Assembly (NCBI GenBank): GCA_048882045.1
Contig: JBHLRZ010000002.1
Coordinates: 96,001-160,000, forward strand
Source of the DNA: Candidatus Thorarchaeota archaeon
GTDB lineage: Archaea; Asgardarchaeota; Thorarchaeia; Thorarchaeales; Thorarchaeaceae
Direction of reading: 5' to 3'
Length of the DNA: 64,000 bases
Part shown: one piece after another, positions 11,325-42,950 of the stretch
Numbering within the stretch: the first letter of the stretch is position 1
How the letters are laid out: each line of letters begins with the position of its first letter
The notes under the pieces: model-generated
What the model was told of the DNA's origin: nothing
The model's input: the letters and a program-made list of their open reading frames with translations, nothing else
The model's database searches: none
Translations under genes and position numbers: made by a program

Positions 11325-11461
11325 TGGTGGGGCGAGTGAGATTTGAACTCACGATCGACGAGTTTCGCCGACTGACGACGGTCATGTTGACCCGTTAGTT
11401 TTGGATGCGAAGTGCATCCAGATCTGGAGCCCGTCGCCATACCGGACTAGGCCACCGCCCC
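11325..11461 (-). tRNA. trnW: tRNA-Trp(CCA) with ~60-nt intron at 37/38 (11364-11423); CCA encoded
   Basis: Reverse strand GGGGCGG..., ACGGG-CT-CCA-G|intron|A-CTCGT, GTGAG-TTCAAAT-CTCAC, TCGCCCC-A-CCA. Confidence 0.93.
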
Positions 11462-13910: not shown

Positions 13911-14030
13911 TGATGGCGGCCATAGGGAGCCGGGAAACACCTGAACTCGGCCGAACTCAGCAGTTAAGACGGCTCTCGTTCAAGGAAATGTGCGCTGCGC
14001 GAGCGCGTGACAAGCCTTGAAGCTGCCACA
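13911..14030 (+). rRNA. rrf: 5S rRNA (stand-alone)
   Basis: TGGCGGCCATAG...GGGAAACACC...CCGAAC...AGTTAAG; terminal helix TGGCGGC/GCTGCCA; TTAAAA ~25 nt upstream, pyrimidine tract downstream. Confidence 0.93.
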
Positions 14031-14103
14031 TTCTCCTTCTCTAATATCTTGTACAAAAATGTAGAGATGGAAGTCATTAAAAGAACAACGACAGAAACCG
14101 AGC

Positions 14104-31556: not shown

Positions 31557-31719
31557 TTTACTCCAACTCTAGTCTTCAGGTCATCCAAACTGCACAACAA
31601 TGTGTGTATCACATGAATGTGGCTGATGCTCTCCTTTTCAAGTCATATTCAGATTCTACTTATTGCTTAGATACAAATCCAAATTCCTATCTAAAACATG
31701 TTGAAACGGAGAGATCTTC

Positions 31720-32040
31720 ATGAAGTTATCAAGACTGAAGATTACAGTAGAGAGAATATTCAGCCCTGAGGAAGTGTTTGGACACGAAATGAAACAAGCG
31801 TCGAATGGGGCTTTCATTAAACCATGTCAATTCTTTGAAGTGGGTCAAGAGTTCATCGCAGAGAACAGTTTTTCACGTCCAGAAGGATTCTGTGGGTGGG
31901 CATGGCGAGATCTTACTGTTCGACTTACTAAGTTCGATCTAATTGATGATATGGACTGGCCTGAAAAGGACATTACCTACGTAGCCTGTGGAGATGGAGT
32001 ACGACCAGTCATCTTCAAATTAGAACGTATTGAAGACTAA
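31720..32040 (+). CDS. TIGR04076-like small Cys protein
   Basis: C..FEVGQEF, PEGFCGWAW, CGDGVRPVIFKLER. Confidence 0.85.
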   Translation: MKLSRLKITVERIFSPEEVFGHEMKQASNGAFIKPCQFFEVGQEFIAENSFSRPEGFCGWAWRDLTVRLTKFDLIDDMDWPEKDITYVACGDGVRPVIFKLERIED

Positions 32041-32046
32041 TGGCAC

Positions 32047-32066
32047 AGAAGAAGTTGTAGCAGGTA
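32047..32066 (+). repeat. degenerate copy of the initiator-tRNA 3'-end repeat
   Basis: AGAAGAAGTTGTAGCAGGTA; 17/20 identical to 35154-35173. Confidence 0.65.
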
Positions 32067-32161
32067 TTGTACAAACACGAATCATTCTCAGTCTGGATAT
32101 AATTCACTAAAATACACCGTCATATGTCGGCTATAATCTATAATCAGAATCCTGAGTCATT

Positions 32162-32968
32162 TTGATCATGAGTTCAATGAACATGAAGCTCAGTTTCGCT
32201 GATGAAGTGAAACAAAAAGCATTGGAAGTAGGTTTTGTGTCAGTTGGCATCGCTGATGTACACGCACTCAAGGATCTTCCGTATGGTTGGGTCGGGGAAG
32301 TACGCGAATTGTACAGACCCGAGAATGAACTCCCAGGTGCAAAATCTGTAATCATGCTGGCATTCAACACTTGGGATCGAGCGTACAGTCTAAATGTTGA
32401 ATCGTCGAGCTGGACAAACAATGGGGTTCAGCATCAAGACTCTAGATACGCTCACGGCAGCCTGGGCTACGAGGTGATGAAGAACAAGGCTTGGACCATT
32501 GTTGAGTTTCTAAATGAGAGAGGATTCAAAGCGAGATGGTCATTAGGAATTCCTCTGAAGACAACAGCTGTTCTATGTGGTTTGGGGGCTCAAGGAAAGA
32601 ACTCGCTTCTGATTACACCTGAATTCGGACCAAGGGTATTCTTGATAGCTGTTCTGACCTCTGCTTCTCTGACACCAGACAGTCCCTTTGAGGATGATCT
32701 ATGCAAGAACTGTGATAGATGCATCAAGGTATGTCCTACTAGAGCAATTGAATCCTACAACCCCAGAATTGAACACTGTATGGTGTATCATTTAGAATGT
32801 CCCGATTCCACAAACGTTCCTGACCATGTGAAAGAGAAATCAAGACAGCTCATCAAACGACCAACATCAAACAGCTATATCGAGTGTACAAGATGTGTAG
32901 ATGTCTGCCCCATCGGGAAGGGACACGAAAGCAGTACTCAATATTCTCCCTTTCTCAATCTTGCCTGA
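32162..32968 (+). CDS. QueG/reductive-dehalogenase-like 4Fe-4S protein
   Basis: PGAKSVI, GLGAQGKNSLLITPEFGPRV, CKNCDRCIKVCP, CTRCVDVCP. Confidence 0.85.
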   Translation: MIMSSMNMKLSFADEVKQKALEVGFVSVGIADVHALKDLPYGWVGEVRELYRPENELPGAKSVIMLAFNTWDRAYSLNVESSSWTNNGVQHQDSRYAHGSLGYEVMKNKAWTIVEFLNERGFKARWSLGIPLKTTAVLCGLGAQGKNSLLITPEFGPRVFLIAVLTSASLTPDSPFEDDLCKNCDRCIKVCPTRAIESYNPRIEHCMVYHLECPDSTNVPDHVKEKSRQLIKRPTSNSYIECTRCVDVCPIGKGHESSTQYSPFLNLA

Positions 32969-33069
32969 AAATCACTGGTAAGGTTCCGAAGTAAAGGTGG
33001 GATTGAGTGGTCACAAGTTTTCCAAGCTCACATTCGGCTCATAGTTCTTAGATGAAACAACAACTTTAA

Positions 33070-33105
33070 ATGTAAAGTTTACTTTACGTAAAGTGAACTT
33101 TACAT
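33070..33105. promoter_or_regulatory. 36-bp near-perfect palindrome (two tandem GTAAAG-N4-CTTTAC sites), likely operator
   Basis: ATGTAAAGTTTACTTTAC|GTAAAGTGAACTTTACAT, between TTTAAA (33065-33070) and an XRE gene. Confidence 0.75.
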
Positions 33106-33111
33106 CACAAA

Positions 33112-33363
33112 GTGAGTGTGACTGATGTGATTGTCAACAGAATCAAGGAGCTTCGAGAACTAGAGATGTCGAAGGCATCCAATCATGACGATTGGACTCA
33201 AGAAGGCCTAGCACGTCGTTTGGGTGTCACACGTCAGACTATAATCTCCATCGAAAAGGGTACTTACAATCCTTCCCTTCTGCTTGCGTTCAAACTTTCA
33301 CGCATCTTTGAGATGAAAATTGAAGATATGTTCCAGTACAGAGATGATAAAGATGCAAACTGA
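33112..33363 (+). CDS. XRE/Cro-family HTH regulator
   Basis: TQEGLARRLGVTRQTIISIEKGTYNPSLLLAFKL. Confidence 0.92.
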   Translation: MSVTDVIVNRIKELRELEMSKASNHDDWTQEGLARRLGVTRQTIISIEKGTYNPSLLLAFKLSRIFEMKIEDMFQYRDDKDAN

Positions 33364-33649
33364 AATGGGTGAAACCTTTCTGATGTTCTATGTAACACTT
33401 GGACTTGTTCTTTTGATCAATGCAGTCATTTTGCTATACATCAAGAGAATCCAAGATGAGCGCTATCTACAGATCTTGGGTTTGGGAGGTCGAAACGCGT
33501 TCGTCTTTGTGATGATTATTTTGCCAATAATAAGTGCGTTGCAATTCATGGGTCTTCCTTGGATAGTTCCAGGATTCTCAGTCTTTGTATTATGGATATC
33601 CTCATTCTTTGCTCTCTATGGTTCAAGTTACTATTACTACAGGAGTTAG
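33353..33649 (+). CDS. DUF2178-like membrane protein
   Basis: DER motif followed by RNAF, TM helices, YYYR end. Confidence 0.7.
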   Translation: MQTEMGETFLMFYVTLGLVLLINAVILLYIKRIQDERYLQILGLGGRNAFVFVMIILPIISALQFMGLPWIVPGFSVFVLWISSFFALYGSSYYYYRS

Positions 33650-34036
33650 ATGAAACAAGGAGGAACAATGACAATGAATCGTAGTCTAAAGACAGCCCTG
33701 AGTATTGTAGCAACTGTAGCAATTGTTTTTGTGATACTTTGGATTCTAGGTTTGTACAATCTGAGTAGCTATGGTGGAGCCATCGGAGGTATGGTTGGTG
33801 GTGTTCTTGGAGCGAGCTATATGCGGCGTTTCTATGATGAGCGGTTCACACAGATCATGAATCTCGCTGCAAGGAACGCCTTTGTCTTTCTGGTGATCAT
33901 CCTCCCTCTGACTTCCATTGTTCTTGTTTCAGTTGAAGAAGTCACACTTCAAATCGCAGCAGGTCTTGTCGTTGTGCCGTGGATATCCTCGCTCATCATT
34001 CTCTACCTGTCGCTGTTCTATTACTATCGAAAATAG
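33650..34036 (+). CDS. DUF2178-like membrane protein (paralog of the previous gene)
   Basis: YDERF...AARNAFVF...YYYRK; probable start 33668 after GGAGG. Confidence 0.7.
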   Translation: MKQGGTMTMNRSLKTALSIVATVAIVFVILWILGLYNLSSYGGAIGGMVGGVLGASYMRRFYDERFTQIMNLAARNAFVFLVIILPLTSIVLVSVEEVTLQIAAGLVVVPWISSLIILYLSLFYYYRK

Positions 34037-34044
34037 ACTCTGTT

Positions 34045-34070
34045 CGAATAAGAAAAATGGTAGCGGGTAG
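34045..34070 (+). repeat. 26-bp direct repeat, copy A (contains reverse complement of tRNA-iMet 3' end)
   Basis: CGAATAAGAAAAATGGTAGCGGGTAG, identical to 34422-34447. Confidence 0.92.
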
Positions 34071-34123
34071 CGAAACAAGAATAGCAAAATTCAACTCAGA
34101 TTCATCACGTATTTCCACCACCA

Positions 34124-34447
34124 ATGCAAATCTTTGATCCTGCAACTGGCATAGTTGCAATCCTCGCTGGAGTAATACTCTCCTCGCTCATTGGTGGATT
34201 GTGTCTTAGGTATGTCTACAGAAACTCAGACCATTTGTTTGTTGGTGTAATGATAATCATCTTGGGATCTTTTGGGGTCTTCTGTACTCTATTTGCATGG
34301 TCGTATATATTCTCACATGTAGATTCATTCCTCCCTATAGGAGCTAGAATGACAATCCTCGGATTGGTAGTTCTACTTCCAATAGCCATCGGATTTGTTA
34401 CTACATCGGGTTTCAATAGAACGAATAAGAAAAATGGTAGCGGGTAG
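34124..34447 (+). CDS. small 3-TM membrane protein
   Basis: 107 aa, hydrophobic; its stop codon is the last TAG of repeat copy B. Confidence 0.7.
   Translation: MQIFDPATGIVAILAGVILSSLIGGLCLRYVYRNSDHLFVGVMIIILGSFGVFCTLFAWSYIFSHVDSFLPIGARMTILGLVVLLPIAIGFVTTSGFNRTNKKNGSG
34422..34447 (+). repeat. 26-bp direct repeat, copy B
   Basis: Identical to 34045-34070; core TGGTAGCGGGT equals 35162-35172. Confidence 0.92.
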
Positions 34448-34600
34448 TTTGAAAGGCAAGCTTCTTGACTGCCTTAGTAAAGTAATGGTCTTGAAAGATT
34501 AATATGGTTAGAATTATCAGATGATACTAGGGCATGCAGGACTAAGGAATCTAGCAACAAATTTGATGTCTTTATACAGAATCGTGGAGGAGGATTATTC

Positions 34601-35113
34601 ATAGTTGAAGGCAAAGATGAGCAGCTAGAGAAAGAGCTCTATGACCCGATAATAGCAGTGCTCAGAGAACGCTTTAGTGAAAAAGGTAAGTGCATATTAG
34701 ACACAACCGATCGACTCTTACATACTGATAATAGGATAAATCTAGATAATGTGGCACTTCTGTCCCTTAGCGTTGAGAGAAAGTTCCCTGATCTGATAGG
34801 ATGTCTTGACATCAGTGAAACGATATTTTCAGAGGAAAGTAGACTGATTGTGGTAGAAATAAAGAGAGGAGTTTTGACTCTTGGGGATTTATACCAAGTA
34901 AAGATGTATGCTGAAGTACTTCAGGCTTACTACGCGATTCTGATATCTCCTAGTGGGTTTCAGAGAGAACAAAGAAAGGCCATTATCGAAATTCCCGAAC
35001 TACTCAACTTTTGTGCTCAGGAATATGATCGTCAGATTGTAGTGATGTATTGGAGAGAAAATACTCTTGAAATAGATGAGGAATTATATTATGAGGACCC
35101 ATTAGAAACTTAA
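34601..35113 (+). CDS. PD-(D/E)XK restriction-endonuclease-like protein
   Basis: EKELYDPI upstream of GTG 34658, PDLIG, VVEIK, QVKMY; possible ATA start after GGAGGAGG. Confidence 0.7.
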   Translation: MVEGKDEQLEKELYDPIIAVLRERFSEKGKCILDTTDRLLHTDNRINLDNVALLSLSVERKFPDLIGCLDISETIFSEESRLIVVEIKRGVLTLGDLYQVKMYAEVLQAYYAILISPSGFQREQRKAIIEIPELLNFCAQEYDRQIVVMYWRENTLEIDEELYYEDPLET

Positions 35114-35161
35114 TTCCTTATCAGTTGAGATAATGTAGAGGGGTGAAATGAAAAGAAGAAG

Positions 35162-35303
35162 TGGTAGCGGGTGGAGGATTTGAACCTCCGATCTCGGGGT
35201 TTCCGAAGCGGGAGCTCAAAGCGTCATCGCTTTATGAGCCCCGCGGGATAGGCTTCACCCACGTGCGGACGAATCCACACAGGACTGGCTTCCCCAACCC
35301 GCT
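35162..35303 (-). tRNA. trnM: initiator tRNA-Met(CAT) with 32-nt anticodon-loop intron (35201-35232) and a D-loop insertion; 5' 12 nt duplicated at 35351-35362
   Basis: A1-U72, AGCGGGT/ACCCGCT, CGGGG-CTCATA|intron|A-CCCCG, GGAGG-TTCAAAT-CCTCC, encoded CCA. Confidence 0.88.
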
Positions 35304-35485
35304 TTTATTTAACCGTTCGTTTGAACAAACACAGCGACCGAGTCTGACGACCCCAACCCGCTATGCTTGGACTGGGGTTTGCTAGAGGGAGTTTTAAAGT
35401 TATTCGTAGGAATCTGAGAATCGAATATGTTATAGTCGCGGAATGTTATGATATTGGAAACACATAGGGCAAATGAGGTGTTTAC

Positions 35486-36421
35486 GTGAAGATTTCTGAG
35501 AGTGTCTTGGATGCGATTGGGAATACATCCTTAGTGCAATTGAAGAAGGTGGTTCCTGACAATCATGCAAGAGTATTAGTGAAATTGGAGTGGGAGAATC
35601 CAACGGGGAGCATGAAAGACCGGATGGCCCAGTCCATGATTGAAAAGGCGGAGGAAGATGGAAGATTAAGTGCTGGTGGTACTGTTGTAGAGTATACAGG
35701 AGGAAGCACGGGCACATCGCTGGCATTGATCTGTGCTATCAAAGGATATCGTTTCCAAGTTGTTTCCTCAGATGTATTCAGTCAAGACAAGCTAAACCAC
35801 ATGAAGGCATTGGGCGCAGAACTGACAATCGTCCCAAGTAGGGGACTTGGGATTAGGAGAGAATTAATCGAGGAGATGATAGAAACCGCTCAAAAACTGA
35901 GTGATTCTCCTGGTACCTACTGGACAGACCAACTGAACAACAAGGACAATGTGTCGGGCTATTTTCCGTTGGGTGAAGAGATTTGGGACCAGACAGGTGG
36001 TAAGGTCGATGCTTTTGTGCATGTGGCTGGGACAGCCGGATCTATCATCGGTACTTCAAGAGTATTGAAGGAGCACAACCCGCAGGTGAGAATTGTTGCT
36101 GTTGAACCTAACGAGTCCCCAGTTTTGTCGGGAGGTGAGAGTGGTTCACACGACATAGAAGGAATTGGGATTGGGTTCCTTCCACCCCTCTGGGATGGTA
36201 GCCTTGTCGATGAAGTCGTTCGCATTCCAACTGAAGAGGCTAAAGAGATGGCAAGATTACTAGCAAGAGAAGAGGGACTATGCGCAGGCACTTCATCAGG
36301 TGCAAATGTGGCTGCAGCCATAAAGGTTGCCAAAGAATTGGGTCCTAGCGCAACAGTAGTTACGCTGTTAGTCGATTCGGGTCTGAAGTACTTGAGTACA
36401 GATCTTTACAAATCCAGTTAA
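35486..36421 (+). CDS. cysteine synthase family PLP enzyme
   Basis: KLEWENPTGSMKDR, GTAGS, IEGIG, GTSSGAN, DSGLKYLST. Confidence 0.9.
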   Translation: MKISESVLDAIGNTSLVQLKKVVPDNHARVLVKLEWENPTGSMKDRMAQSMIEKAEEDGRLSAGGTVVEYTGGSTGTSLALICAIKGYRFQVVSSDVFSQDKLNHMKALGAELTIVPSRGLGIRRELIEEMIETAQKLSDSPGTYWTDQLNNKDNVSGYFPLGEEIWDQTGGKVDAFVHVAGTAGSIIGTSRVLKEHNPQVRIVAVEPNESPVLSGGESGSHDIEGIGIGFLPPLWDGSLVDEVVRIPTEEAKEMARLLAREEGLCAGTSSGANVAAAIKVAKELGPSATVVTLLVDSGLKYLSTDLYKSS

Positions 36422-36455
36422 TTAGGTTCTGGGTCATCACAAGGGCTTCAGAGAG

Positions 36456-37082
36456 GTGTGTGAGGAAATGGGAGACTCAGAGATAATCAAGAAGTTTCGT
36501 CGAATACTTGAAGAATGTGAGGAAGAACATGTATTCAATGGCACAATTCTAGAGCTTGACACACCAATAGACTATGCACCATATCGTGTAAGAGGGATAT
36601 CTGTTGAAGCAGCTAGTGGACTTCACAAAGTCAGGTTTTCTAGAAACTTTCGAAATGATCTCGACATAGAGATAGCCCCACTGAACATTGAGGATGAAGT
36701 TGTGGTCTTTGGTCGTCAGAGCAAGCAGAAAGAGAATGAAACATCACCAATAATCATTCTTCTTCCCAAAGAGAGAACCATGATTCTTGCACGAGAGCGA
36801 GAACCAACAGGTTGGCAAGGAGGATGGTCCGAGTGGAGTGTTGTTGGATCTGCTGTGGTTGCTCTGGTTCTCAGCGCAGTAGGGATGTATATAGTGTATT
36901 TTGAAGAATCCAGTTCCTATACACCACTGGAATGGTTTGTGGGTGCATACTTCTTCTTCTTCCTCATGCTTGGACTTGAGTGGTACAACAAGTTCTCAAA
37001 GAGAGAACGAGTAATTCACTGTAATCCAAAGGATTGGGAAATCATCACTGAAGAGGTTTCAAGGAAATACAACATCATGTAG
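36456..37082 (+). CDS. hypothetical membrane protein (possible N-terminal OB-like domain, 2 TM)
   Basis: 208 aa with two C-terminal hydrophobic helices. Confidence 0.6.
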   Translation: MCEEMGDSEIIKKFRRILEECEEEHVFNGTILELDTPIDYAPYRVRGISVEAASGLHKVRFSRNFRNDLDIEIAPLNIEDEVVVFGRQSKQKENETSPIIILLPKERTMILAREREPTGWQGGWSEWSVVGSAVVALVLSAVGMYIVYFEESSSYTPLEWFVGAYFFFFLMLGLEWYNKFSKRERVIHCNPKDWEIITEEVSRKYNIM

Positions 37083-38274
37083 ATGACTTCACGTTCTTAG
37101 CAAACTCCATCCCGAAGTTGACGGCCTGTTCGAGTTCTTTAGCATCTGGAACCCACTTCACAGTGAAAGGCTCCATCACTATGTCCATTTTCCCCTTCTC
37201 CATGGACTCCTGAATCTTCTTCACAGCACCTCCGCCCCACCCATAGGAACCGAATGCAGCACACTTCTTGCCAACAGGTTTTAGCATCTCCAAATCAGAA
37301 AGCACCGATGCTACATTTGGCAGGATGTCATTGTGCATAGTAGAACTCCCAACGAGAATACCTCTTGCCTCCAATAGATCAGCCATGATGTCGTAGCGGT
37401 CACAGTGAGGGATGAGCTTCATAACAGGTTCCAATCCCTCACTTCGTATGCCTTCCGCGATGGCTCTTGCAATCTTTGTCGTGCTCTCCCACATCGTGTC
37501 CCAGGTGATGACCACCTTGTCTTGAAGCCTTTCGCCTTTGGCCCACTCAAGGTATCGGGTCACAATCTGAAGAGGATCTTTTCGCCATATCAGACCGTGA
37601 GATGGAGCTATCATCTTGATAGGGAGCCCCAACTCGACAACCTCCTCAATTTTCCTCTGGACCATTCTACTCAATGGCCAGAGGATGTTAGCATAGTATT
37701 TCTCAGCCTCTCGCCAAAGGACATTCTGTTCCACCTCGTCAGCAAACCTACTTTCAGTGGCATAATGTTGACCAAATGCATCATTTGGCAACAACAGCTC
37801 CTTCTCAACATAATATGTGAACATGGACTCAGGCCAGTGAAGCATTGGTGCCTCATAGAACCTGAGAGTCTTACCTCCCAAGTCTATCTCATCACCTGTC
37901 TTGACTGTTTGAATGTTCCATCCATCACCATAGTGTTTCTTGAGTTGATCAACAGCCTTTGAACTGCAGATGAGTTTGGCATCTGAAGCCATCTCAAGGA
38001 CCTTTGGAGTTGTTCCTGAATGGTCCATCTCTGTGTGATTCGATATCATATAGTCGATTTTCTGTATATCAATGACCTTGGATATTCTCGACAACATCTC
38101 GTCGGCAAACAGACCCATAACAGAATCAACCAGCGCGACTTTTTTCCCTACAATTAGATAGGAATTGTAGGTAGTCCCGTGGTGTGTTGTGTAGCTAAAA
38201 CCGTGGAAATTTCGAATGTTGTAATCTAAGGCGCCTACCCAGTATACATCCTTCATAATCTCAAATGGTTCCAA
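37075..38274 (-). CDS. fprA: flavodiiron protein (FprA family)
   Basis: GTTYNSYL, NHTEMDH, LHWP, DAFGQH, PSHG, C-terminal flavodoxin FGSYGW. Confidence 0.95.
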   Translation of the reverse strand: MEPFEIMKDVYWVGALDYNIRNFHGFSYTTHHGTTYNSYLIVGKKVALVDSVMGLFADEMLSRISKVIDIQKIDYMISNHTEMDHSGTTPKVLEMASDAKLICSSKAVDQLKKHYGDGWNIQTVKTGDEIDLGGKTLRFYEAPMLHWPESMFTYYVEKELLLPNDAFGQHYATESRFADEVEQNVLWREAEKYYANILWPLSRMVQRKIEEVVELGLPIKMIAPSHGLIWRKDPLQIVTRYLEWAKGERLQDKVVITWDTMWESTTKIARAIAEGIRSEGLEPVMKLIPHCDRYDIMADLLEARGILVGSSTMHNDILPNVASVLSDLEMLKPVGKKCAAFGSYGWGGGAVKKIQESMEKGKMDIVMEPFTVKWVPDAKELEQAVNFGMEFAKNVKSST

Positions 38275-42834: not shown

Positions 42835-42950
42835 TAGGTTTCAGACTATGTCTGAACCTATACCATTTCCTTTGTGTTGGCGGATACGTCCGCACGGGAT
42901 GTGGCCCTAGGGGCTGAACCACAAACAAAGCGAATCATTAACTGCAAAGG
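42835..42950 (+). promoter_or_regulatory. structured 5' leader of rpl15e
   Basis: Hairpins TAGGTTTCAGAC/GTCTGAACCTA, GCGGA-TACG-TCCGC, GCCC-TAG-GGGC. Confidence 0.45.

Follow-up and report, generated by a model that had tools for sequence, protein, structure and literature searches.

How do genes of mostly unknown function come to stand one after another beside an archaeal tRNA gene, each ending at a copy of that tRNA's 3' end, and what could have put them there? The question is raised by a locus (positions 31,720 to 35,303) in a window of Candidatus Thorarchaeota DNA, by which we mean the whole stretch of 64,000 nucleotides that was analysed, that is, contig C2:96001-160000 of a 3.6-Mb metagenome-assembled genome that is 93% complete (G000; relatives' genomes are numbered in the same way, and bare positions are those of the window). 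In our best reading, insertion units have been lined up in tandem at the 3' end of the initiator tRNA gene (tRNA-iMet), and the locus is the part of this array that lies nearest to the tRNA. Copies of the tRNA end with units of one to few genes between them, gain and loss of units at these copies, and the same architecture at other tRNA genes and family-wide are directly observed; the array phenomenon is real and much wider than the window alone shows.

The gene to which the array is anchored is a single-copy tRNA-Met(CAT) on the minus strand (35162-35303), with the initiator features A1:U72 and GGG/CCC in the anticodon stem. Two interruptions, one of about 33 nt inserted in the D-loop and the other a 32-nt intron of the anticodon loop, caused it to be missed both by a default run of ARAGORN and by the Rfam gathering threshold; ARAGORN recovers it when introns are allowed (mislabelled as Leu) or after removal of the introns in silico. 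The last 11 nt of the gene (35162-35172) are the repeated core. This core, TGGTAGCGGGT, the reverse complement of the tRNA-iMet 3' end, recurs at 34058-34068 and 34435-34445, each time within a perfect 26-bp direct repeat (CGAATAAGAAAAATGGTAGCGGGTAG; copy A, 34045-34070, and copy B, 34422-34447, both on the plus strand), of which 35149-35174 is a third family member (73%). A decayed copy of the tRNA 3' end lies further out (32047-32066, plus strand), with a purine tract and the core TTGTAGCAGGT at 32055-32065; over 32047-32065 (AGAAGAAGTTGTAGCAGGT) it matches 35154-35172 at 89%. Towards the tRNA, the core-to-core spacings are 2003, 377 and 727 bp. The three copies and the decayed one share one orientation, and each open reading frame (ORF) terminates at or in a copy: one stop codon (32038-32040) lies 7 nt ahead of the decayed copy, another (34034-34036) 9 nt ahead of copy A, and a stop TAG (34445-34447) falls within copy B. 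A first-pass annotation of the window had named the perfect repeat, the tRNA 11-mer, the decayed third copy and the stop codons at or near the copies, and all are found where it placed them. The copies are direct repeats of 11-26 nt, with no inverted repeats reported at them, and no terminal inverted repeats occur at the unit ends.

Coincidence, local duplication of a gene end in tandem, or faulty assembly might be suspected here: an 11-mer is short, the perfect copies share 13 more bases, as a local duplication would, and the genome is metagenome-assembled. Against this, of the 6 occurrences of the 11-mer in the 3.6-Mb genome, 3 fall within 1.1 kb at this locus, and the 13-mer TGGTAGCGGGTRG has 35 matches across 28 genomes of the genus (nearly all beside tRNA-iMet) as compared with 3 for a reversed control; a chance origin of the copies is thereby excluded. 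The decayed copy is also genuine rather than fortuitous, because in G002 the orthologous cassette of a 106-aa protein is followed by TTGTAGCGGGT at the matching position, and because one X1 metagenome contig connects 32039 directly with 35159. An assembly artefact as the source of the repeats is unlikely, since the stretch is carried (96-98% covered) by assembled contigs from five metagenome runs of two studies, two of the runs possibly being the source of the window DNA, and since single contigs cross both repeats without differences. Moreover, the copies are present in independent assemblies, the architecture occurs in more than 20 genomes, and the units between copies are mutually unrelated in sequence. 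Explanations of this kind are hardly credible.

What lies between the copies is a set of accessory genes. The 727-bp unit next to the tRNA holds a gene for a PD-(D/E)XK-type, Cas4-like nuclease (34514-35113, plus strand; motif PDLIG...VEIK), whose profile matches are weak (HSDR_N_2; Cas4 6.7e-4). Its frame is open from 34505, the first usual start is a GTG at 34658, and the codon at the position of the G004 homologue's start is TTA here; translation may begin at an unusual codon, or else at GTG 34658, giving a shorter N-terminus. Over 34432-35172, with ends exactly at the two cores, G000 and G004 share 90% identity; around a third homologue of the nuclease (E44_bin77), recognisable cores are absent. 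The sole gene of the 377-bp unit encodes a 107-aa small membrane protein (34124-34447, plus strand), with its stop inside copy B, and in G005, G004 and G002 members of this family fill core-bounded units of 340-433 bp. Left of copy A lies a module of an XRE-family helix-turn-helix (HTH) regulator (33112-33363, plus strand; HTH_3 4.7e-12) and two small membrane proteins (33320-33649 and 33650-34036, plus strand) with homologues in 8 relatives. A conserved, perfect-spaced palindrome upstream of the regulator gene (33070-33105; inverted repeat I7, 18+18 nt, 94% complementary) has both-strand matches in 7 relatives and is likely the operator of the module. The first full core stands behind this module here, and a core or near-core stands behind it in G043, G014, G042 and G002. 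Further out, a 268-aa 4Fe-4S protein that is weakly QueG-like (32162-32968, plus strand; Fer4_16 8.5e-8, QueG_DUF1730 under the cut-off) has no homologue in related loci and is unique to G000 among those compared. The 106-aa gene (31720-32040, plus strand), which is without a Pfam match, precedes the decayed copy. It forms a single-gene unit in G002, with cores 433 bp apart, and the two copies of the gene share 92% amino acid and 84% nucleotide identity, with a backbone identity of 77% between the genomes; their positions differ, after the XRE module in G002 and before it here. The GC content is 0.40-0.41 across 33-35 kb, against about 0.45 elsewhere.

Do these units come and go? Throughout the genus, tRNA-iMet has the genes for S24e, S27ae and a conserved 85-aa membrane protein linked to it, and the interval from rps27ae to tRNA-iMet ranges from 0.8 to 16 kb. 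Two to five core copies (with at most one or two mismatches) stand at tRNA-iMet in 13 of the 20 species genomes examined there; they are oriented like the tRNA, with a purine-rich tract ahead of each, and the consensus of 28 internal copies in the genus reads purine run, TGGTAGCGGGT, RGTNT. Most units measure 0.3-2.3 kb and are filled by one ORF. Units are gained, lost and differently ordered between species and strains, with the breakpoints at the copies, which is what the first-pass annotation had proposed to look for in this interval. Between the nuclease unit and the tRNA, for example, one G004 contig has an extra unit of 377 bp, for a membrane protein, and a second G004 contig has one of 297 bp. 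The contigs of strains from the metagenomes agree: the one that joins 32039 to 35159 puts the 106-aa unit directly at the tRNA, and others branch at 34472 and 32053 into other units. The view that the copies behave as attachment scars of the tRNA 3' end, delimiting accessory units that are mostly co-oriented, is supported.

Nor is the phenomenon restricted to this genus or to this tRNA. Other genera of the family have arrays at tRNA-iMet, with 12 copies in 22 kb in G172, 6 in G109 (five co-oriented single-ORF units), 5 in G175 and 3 in G294; in these the repeat matches the host's own tRNA allele and is 20-40 nt long, up to the whole 3' exon. A search for similar arrays at other tRNAs, another suggestion of the early annotation, found comparable ones at about four further tRNA genes of G000, bounded by 23-45 nt of the tRNA 3' end. 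A tRNA-Leu array (C9:63434-68197; L100:3434-8197) has five copies of TTCAAATCTCGCCCTCCGCACCA around units of 500, 446, 2570 and 1130 bp, and two of its small membrane-protein genes terminate within the repeat, in ...GAEGEI and the stop; no homology to the small membrane proteins of the iMet array was detected. At a Lys/Gln-type tRNA on C49 (L101:818-16547), a stretch of about 45 nt from the tRNA 3' half is present five times within 15.7 kb, and the products of the first unit, of 9 kb, include a HerA-like protein of 1029 aa and one of 923 aa, whose N-terminus is acidic and which has many HTH repeats. A tRNA-Phe gene has three copies (C54:9427-12148; L102), and a second tRNA-Leu array has two copies 597 bp apart (C2:94376-94983; L103), 1.0-1.6 kb upstream of the window start. 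Across arrays, the cargo includes metallo-beta-lactamase-fold hydrolases, an M14 peptidase, a histidine kinase, TPR and NosD-like proteins, giant CARDB/PKD proteins and many orphans.

How might such arrays be built? We suggest that units are exchanged one at a time by site-specific recombination in the last 11-13 nt of the tRNA gene, through an enzyme that acts in trans or is not yet recognised, and we would give this reading a probability of roughly 55%. Each unit would be added by recombination inside these nucleotides (ACCCGCUACCA in the sense of the tRNA), and the insertion would restore an intact tRNA end, while the far side of the insert would keep a copy of the end together with the purine-rich tract. 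Read on the tRNA strand, that tract would be a T-rich, terminator-like run right after CCA, which may provide the tRNA gene with a terminator after insertion. Units could later be lost, and perhaps moved, through recombination from copy to copy. The reaction is envisaged as site-specific, with the small units integrating as such, and the enzyme could be encoded on a plasmid or virus that was not binned, or belong to an unrecognised family. Array formation through re-use of a single site is known for elements that integrate by means of tyrosine recombinases (PMC6563490). Four traits are unusual here: the very short identity block, the integron-like one-gene units, the recurrence of exact boundaries, and the absence of integrases throughout.

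Several observations weigh against this reading. Six-frame searches for a tyrosine recombinase or integrase (PF00589, PF16795) gave no match in the window or in the whole assembly, which is 93% complete and in which plasmids and viruses often go unbinned; the assembly also has no match to PF00239 (serine recombinase), PF01797 (Y1 HUH transposase), PF01867 (Cas1) or PF00078 (reverse transcriptase). At the threshold used for PF00589 (E<=0.01) all 14 control genomes were matched, and controls were matched in the searches for the other enzymes, too. The first-pass annotation had remarked on the lack of an integrase in the window; the same is true of the assembly and of about 25 related arrays, and the array contigs of the 33 relatives searched have no PF00589 match. 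Additionally, the perfect copies A and B share 13 further nucleotides left of the core, which a simple attP x attB exchange does not predict. The array is not simply ordered by age, as had first been claimed, because, by comparison with 8 relatives in which the XRE module directly follows the 85-aa gene, the segment of about 31651-33053 (the 106-aa and QueG-like genes) is a derived distal insertion; the left edge of this insertion is without a core. Between species, the identity of the cassettes mostly does not exceed that of the backbone, and much of the variation could thus be old and stem from differential loss rather than from active capture. Finally, no excised circle, the postulated one of 377 bp included, and no empty-site junction for small units was seen among the assembled contigs, which drop rare forms and are hence uninformative on this point. 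A lively present-day capture is argued against by the cassette identities, one visible remnant unit, the order not following age and the lack of a circle in the contigs.

The main alternative is one in which larger plasmids or viruses with their own integrases inserted repeatedly, and internal deletions left only immobile remnants bounded by attachment (att) sites that were then differentially lost, a process that has been termed gene capture. Integrase loss after integration at archaeal tRNA genes has reportedly been described (She et al. 2001). In G009, a 43-aa relic of the winged-helix (wHTH) gene with which the HerA/LAGLIDADG element described below terminates lies directly left of a core, which makes that unit a decayed larger element; in G022 a 321-bp unit carries this terminal wHTH gene alone. 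The decayed window copy, cassette identities about equal to or below those of the backbone, and the classical repeats of 23-45 nt in the other arrays of G000 fit as well. Yet six-frame searches of G000 yield no relic of PF00589 or PF16795, and the array contigs of 33 relatives none of PF00589. The units cluster at 0.3-2.3 kb with one intact ORF each, one and the same small unit can reappear among other neighbours with its boundaries unchanged, and units of 297-377 bp differ between genomes of about 90% identity exactly at the tRNA-proximal core. Moreover, the cargo consists mostly of ordinary or orphan genes rather than those of viruses or plasmids. We consider it somewhat unlikely that the arrays consist of such fossils only. 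The early annotation had set remnants of large elements and an assembly artefact against its own capture model: the former applies to some units, as in G009, and the latter is improbable.

If units are exchanged by recombination in the tRNA end, which enzyme is responsible? The host Xer recombinase, to which the first-pass annotation had pointed, is unlikely as the actor because PF00589 has no match in G000 or in 19 of the 28 genus genomes (matches being found in only 9). As an observation in its own right, G000 and these 19 genomes have no recognisable XerA, which bears on chromosome dimer resolution. Other candidates were rejected in turn. A casposon would be expected to come with Cas1 and with terminal inverted repeats at the unit ends, and neither is there; for a HUH transposon, the Y1 transposase is lacking in the assembly. 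An SSV-type ('suicidal') element with a split integrase finds no PF16795 or PF00589 match, and the ORFs entering the copies encode small membrane proteins. A retro-element, with the core as a tRNA-iMet primer-binding site behind a polypurine tract, was rejected as the main explanation because the genome is without reverse transcriptase and the purine tract has another explanation, being complementary to the T-rich run downstream of the tRNA. Integrases hidden among the large single ORFs beside the other tRNA arrays were not found either: the 832-aa protein of C9 is a beta-propeller/TSP3 surface protein, and the C49 848-aa and C54 720-aa proteins have nothing recombinase-like. A 15-mer search of viral contigs gave at least 120 matches, about as many as expected by chance from a rough estimate of the collection size, and was dropped.

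The only candidate driver that we found comes from relatives. In G009, G005, G001 and G172 (the last from another genus), a unit at tRNA-iMet encodes a HerA-like ATPase, a protein of 750-830 aa and small winged-helix proteins. In G009, G005 and G001 it lies right at the tRNA-iMet core, and in G172 it is found where the array ends away from the tRNA. Elements of this kind (L069:8444-15016 in G009; L070:9063-12750 in G005; L114:508-7626) have short copies of a tRNA 3' end as their borders. The large protein (L069:11428-13926 in G009) consists of acidic, HTH and double-LAGLIDADG parts. Its C-terminal 533 aa have a predicted fold (predicted local distance difference test, pLDDT, 94.9) that matches I-DmoI, I-Tsp061I and PI-SceI and no other fold, with two LAGLIDADG-like motifs or helices ending in conserved acidic residues, and the family comprises 322 cluster representatives; no relatives were found in viral contigs. 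The ATPase-nuclease pair recurs on unrelated contigs, and on one of these the pair lies within a direct repeat (17/20 nt) derived from the 3' end of a Leu-like tRNA. Defence models of the HerA type match the ATPase as well. A profile search of G000 found no member with the LAGLIDADG domain; the relative of the family there is the 923-aa protein of C49, adjoining the HerA-like gene, which was discounted as a member because it shares only the acidic N-terminal region, HTH repeats replacing the nuclease domain. The pair may integrate DNA or may simply be carried as cargo.

Two further readings make room for it. In the first, integron-like capture on tRNA 3' ends would be run by elements of this HerA-like ATPase and LAGLIDADG/HTH type, or by an unrecognised recombinase, instead of by tyrosine or serine recombinases, and single genes would be stored up and traded as units between copies of a tRNA end; we find this doubtful. 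In the second, the LAGLIDADG protein would cut at the tRNA 3' end, and repair would copy units from another array, located on a further chromosome copy or on incoming DNA, and end by annealing at the next repeat, with the gain, duplication or deletion of whole units as the outcome. This idea draws on the large protein beside the HerA-like ATPase being the only enzyme of mobile-element type linked to the arrays, on its predicted fold, conserved acidic residues and large family, on the recurrence of the same gene pair within a Leu-like tRNA 3'-end repeat, and on the lack of a classical recombinase in the assembly. Set against these points, G000 has only the HTH-repeat relative, the tRNA 3' end as the cutting target is an assumption, the pair could equally be cargo such as a defence system, and the way in which new units first gain their flanking copies is left unexplained. 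We know of no precedent for nuclease-driven copying of this kind and regard it as quite improbable.

The other side of the tRNA gene deserves a brief look. A second copy of the tRNA 5' end, AGCGGGTTGGGG..., lies at 35344-35362 (minus strand; direct repeat D7, 84%), 59 nt upstream of the true 5' end; the duplicated 5' part amounts to 12-19 nt. A gene for a pyridoxal phosphate (PLP)-dependent enzyme and one for a 208-aa membrane protein (35486-37082) stand between the 5' side of the tRNA and a conserved flavodiiron-type gene (37075-38274). This last gene comes directly after the tRNA in G043, G042 and G012, and in the two closest relatives the contigs end some 200 bp upstream of the gene for the PLP enzyme; the 5' side of the tRNA is therefore variable, too. 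The introns of tRNA-iMet are at other positions in relatives, including in or next to the T-arm (G009, G012, G014, G010, G001). Elsewhere in the window, Rfam models match a 5S rRNA (13912-14031), an intron-containing tRNA (11328-11461) and, despite the Asgard host, an eL15 leader of the 'Euryarchaeota' type (42880-42925).

What do the arrays tell us about gene turnover in these archaea? They mark a family-wide hot spot at which single genes, mostly of unknown function, are kept in ordered arrays at tRNA genes with no known integration enzyme. If the units are still mobile, this would be an archaeal route of gene capture comparable to integrons and differently built, pointing to an integration enzyme that has escaped recognition. 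Even if they are fossils, the arrays offer a ready marker of accessory-gene turnover in Thorarchaeota and define a new family of tRNA-integrating elements with a HerA-like ATPase and a predicted LAGLIDADG nuclease, a kind of tRNA-integrated element that is undescribed so far.

How, then, does the locus compare with known systems? Free-standing LAGLIDADG homing genes of the I-DmoI type resemble the relatives' tRNA-iMet element in that it encodes a predicted double-LAGLIDADG fold. Unlike them, the relatives' gene stands outside an intron or intein, is fused to acidic and HTH regions, is paired with a HerA-like ATPase and is bounded by tRNA ends; G009, G005, G001 and G172 carry such a gene in units at this site, and G000 has none. 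Integrons, including those reported in archaeal metagenome-assembled genomes, resemble the present arrays in that their cassettes are mostly promoter-poor, co-oriented and limited to one gene, of diverse or unknown function, in that every cassette ends in a recombination site, and in that the content varies between relatives. The comparison to integrons drawn in the first-pass annotation thus holds as an analogy, for a variable, co-oriented single-gene array is what we see, and fails beyond that: there is no IntI by the array or in the genome, its sites consist of short direct repeats of a tRNA end instead of imperfect palindromes that fold as attC sites do, and the anchor is an essential tRNA gene rather than an attI site with a Pc promoter.

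The arrays are closer to tRNA-targeted tandem arrays and archaeal gene capture, with which they share insertion at the tRNA 3' end, direct repeats corresponding to the 3' part of the tRNA, re-use of the site and a lower GC content; integrase-less remnants are also known among such systems. Here, too, direct repeats of the 3' part of the target tRNA flank the inserts and the tRNA is restored. They differ in that the units are mostly 0.3-2.3 kb in size with a single ordinary or orphan gene, in the identity block of 11-13 nt, in the family-wide spread of the architecture, and in the integrase gene, of which neither an intact form inside an element nor a relic was found in any array examined or in G000. 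Finally, the cis-mobilisable elements (CIMEs) and integrative and mobilisable elements (IMEs) of streptococci and the additive flexible genomic islands at tRNA genes are bounded by att sites, lack their own recombinase, accrete in tandem and are thought to be moved by an integrase in trans. Those systems are bacterial, several kb in size and derived from integrative and conjugative elements, with a known helper integrase, whereas the units described here are far smaller and no helper has been identified for them. Like cis-mobilisable elements, they are bounded by att-like copies and come without a recombinase of their own, and the gain and loss of units precisely at these copies suggests that the copies act as the sites of exchange.

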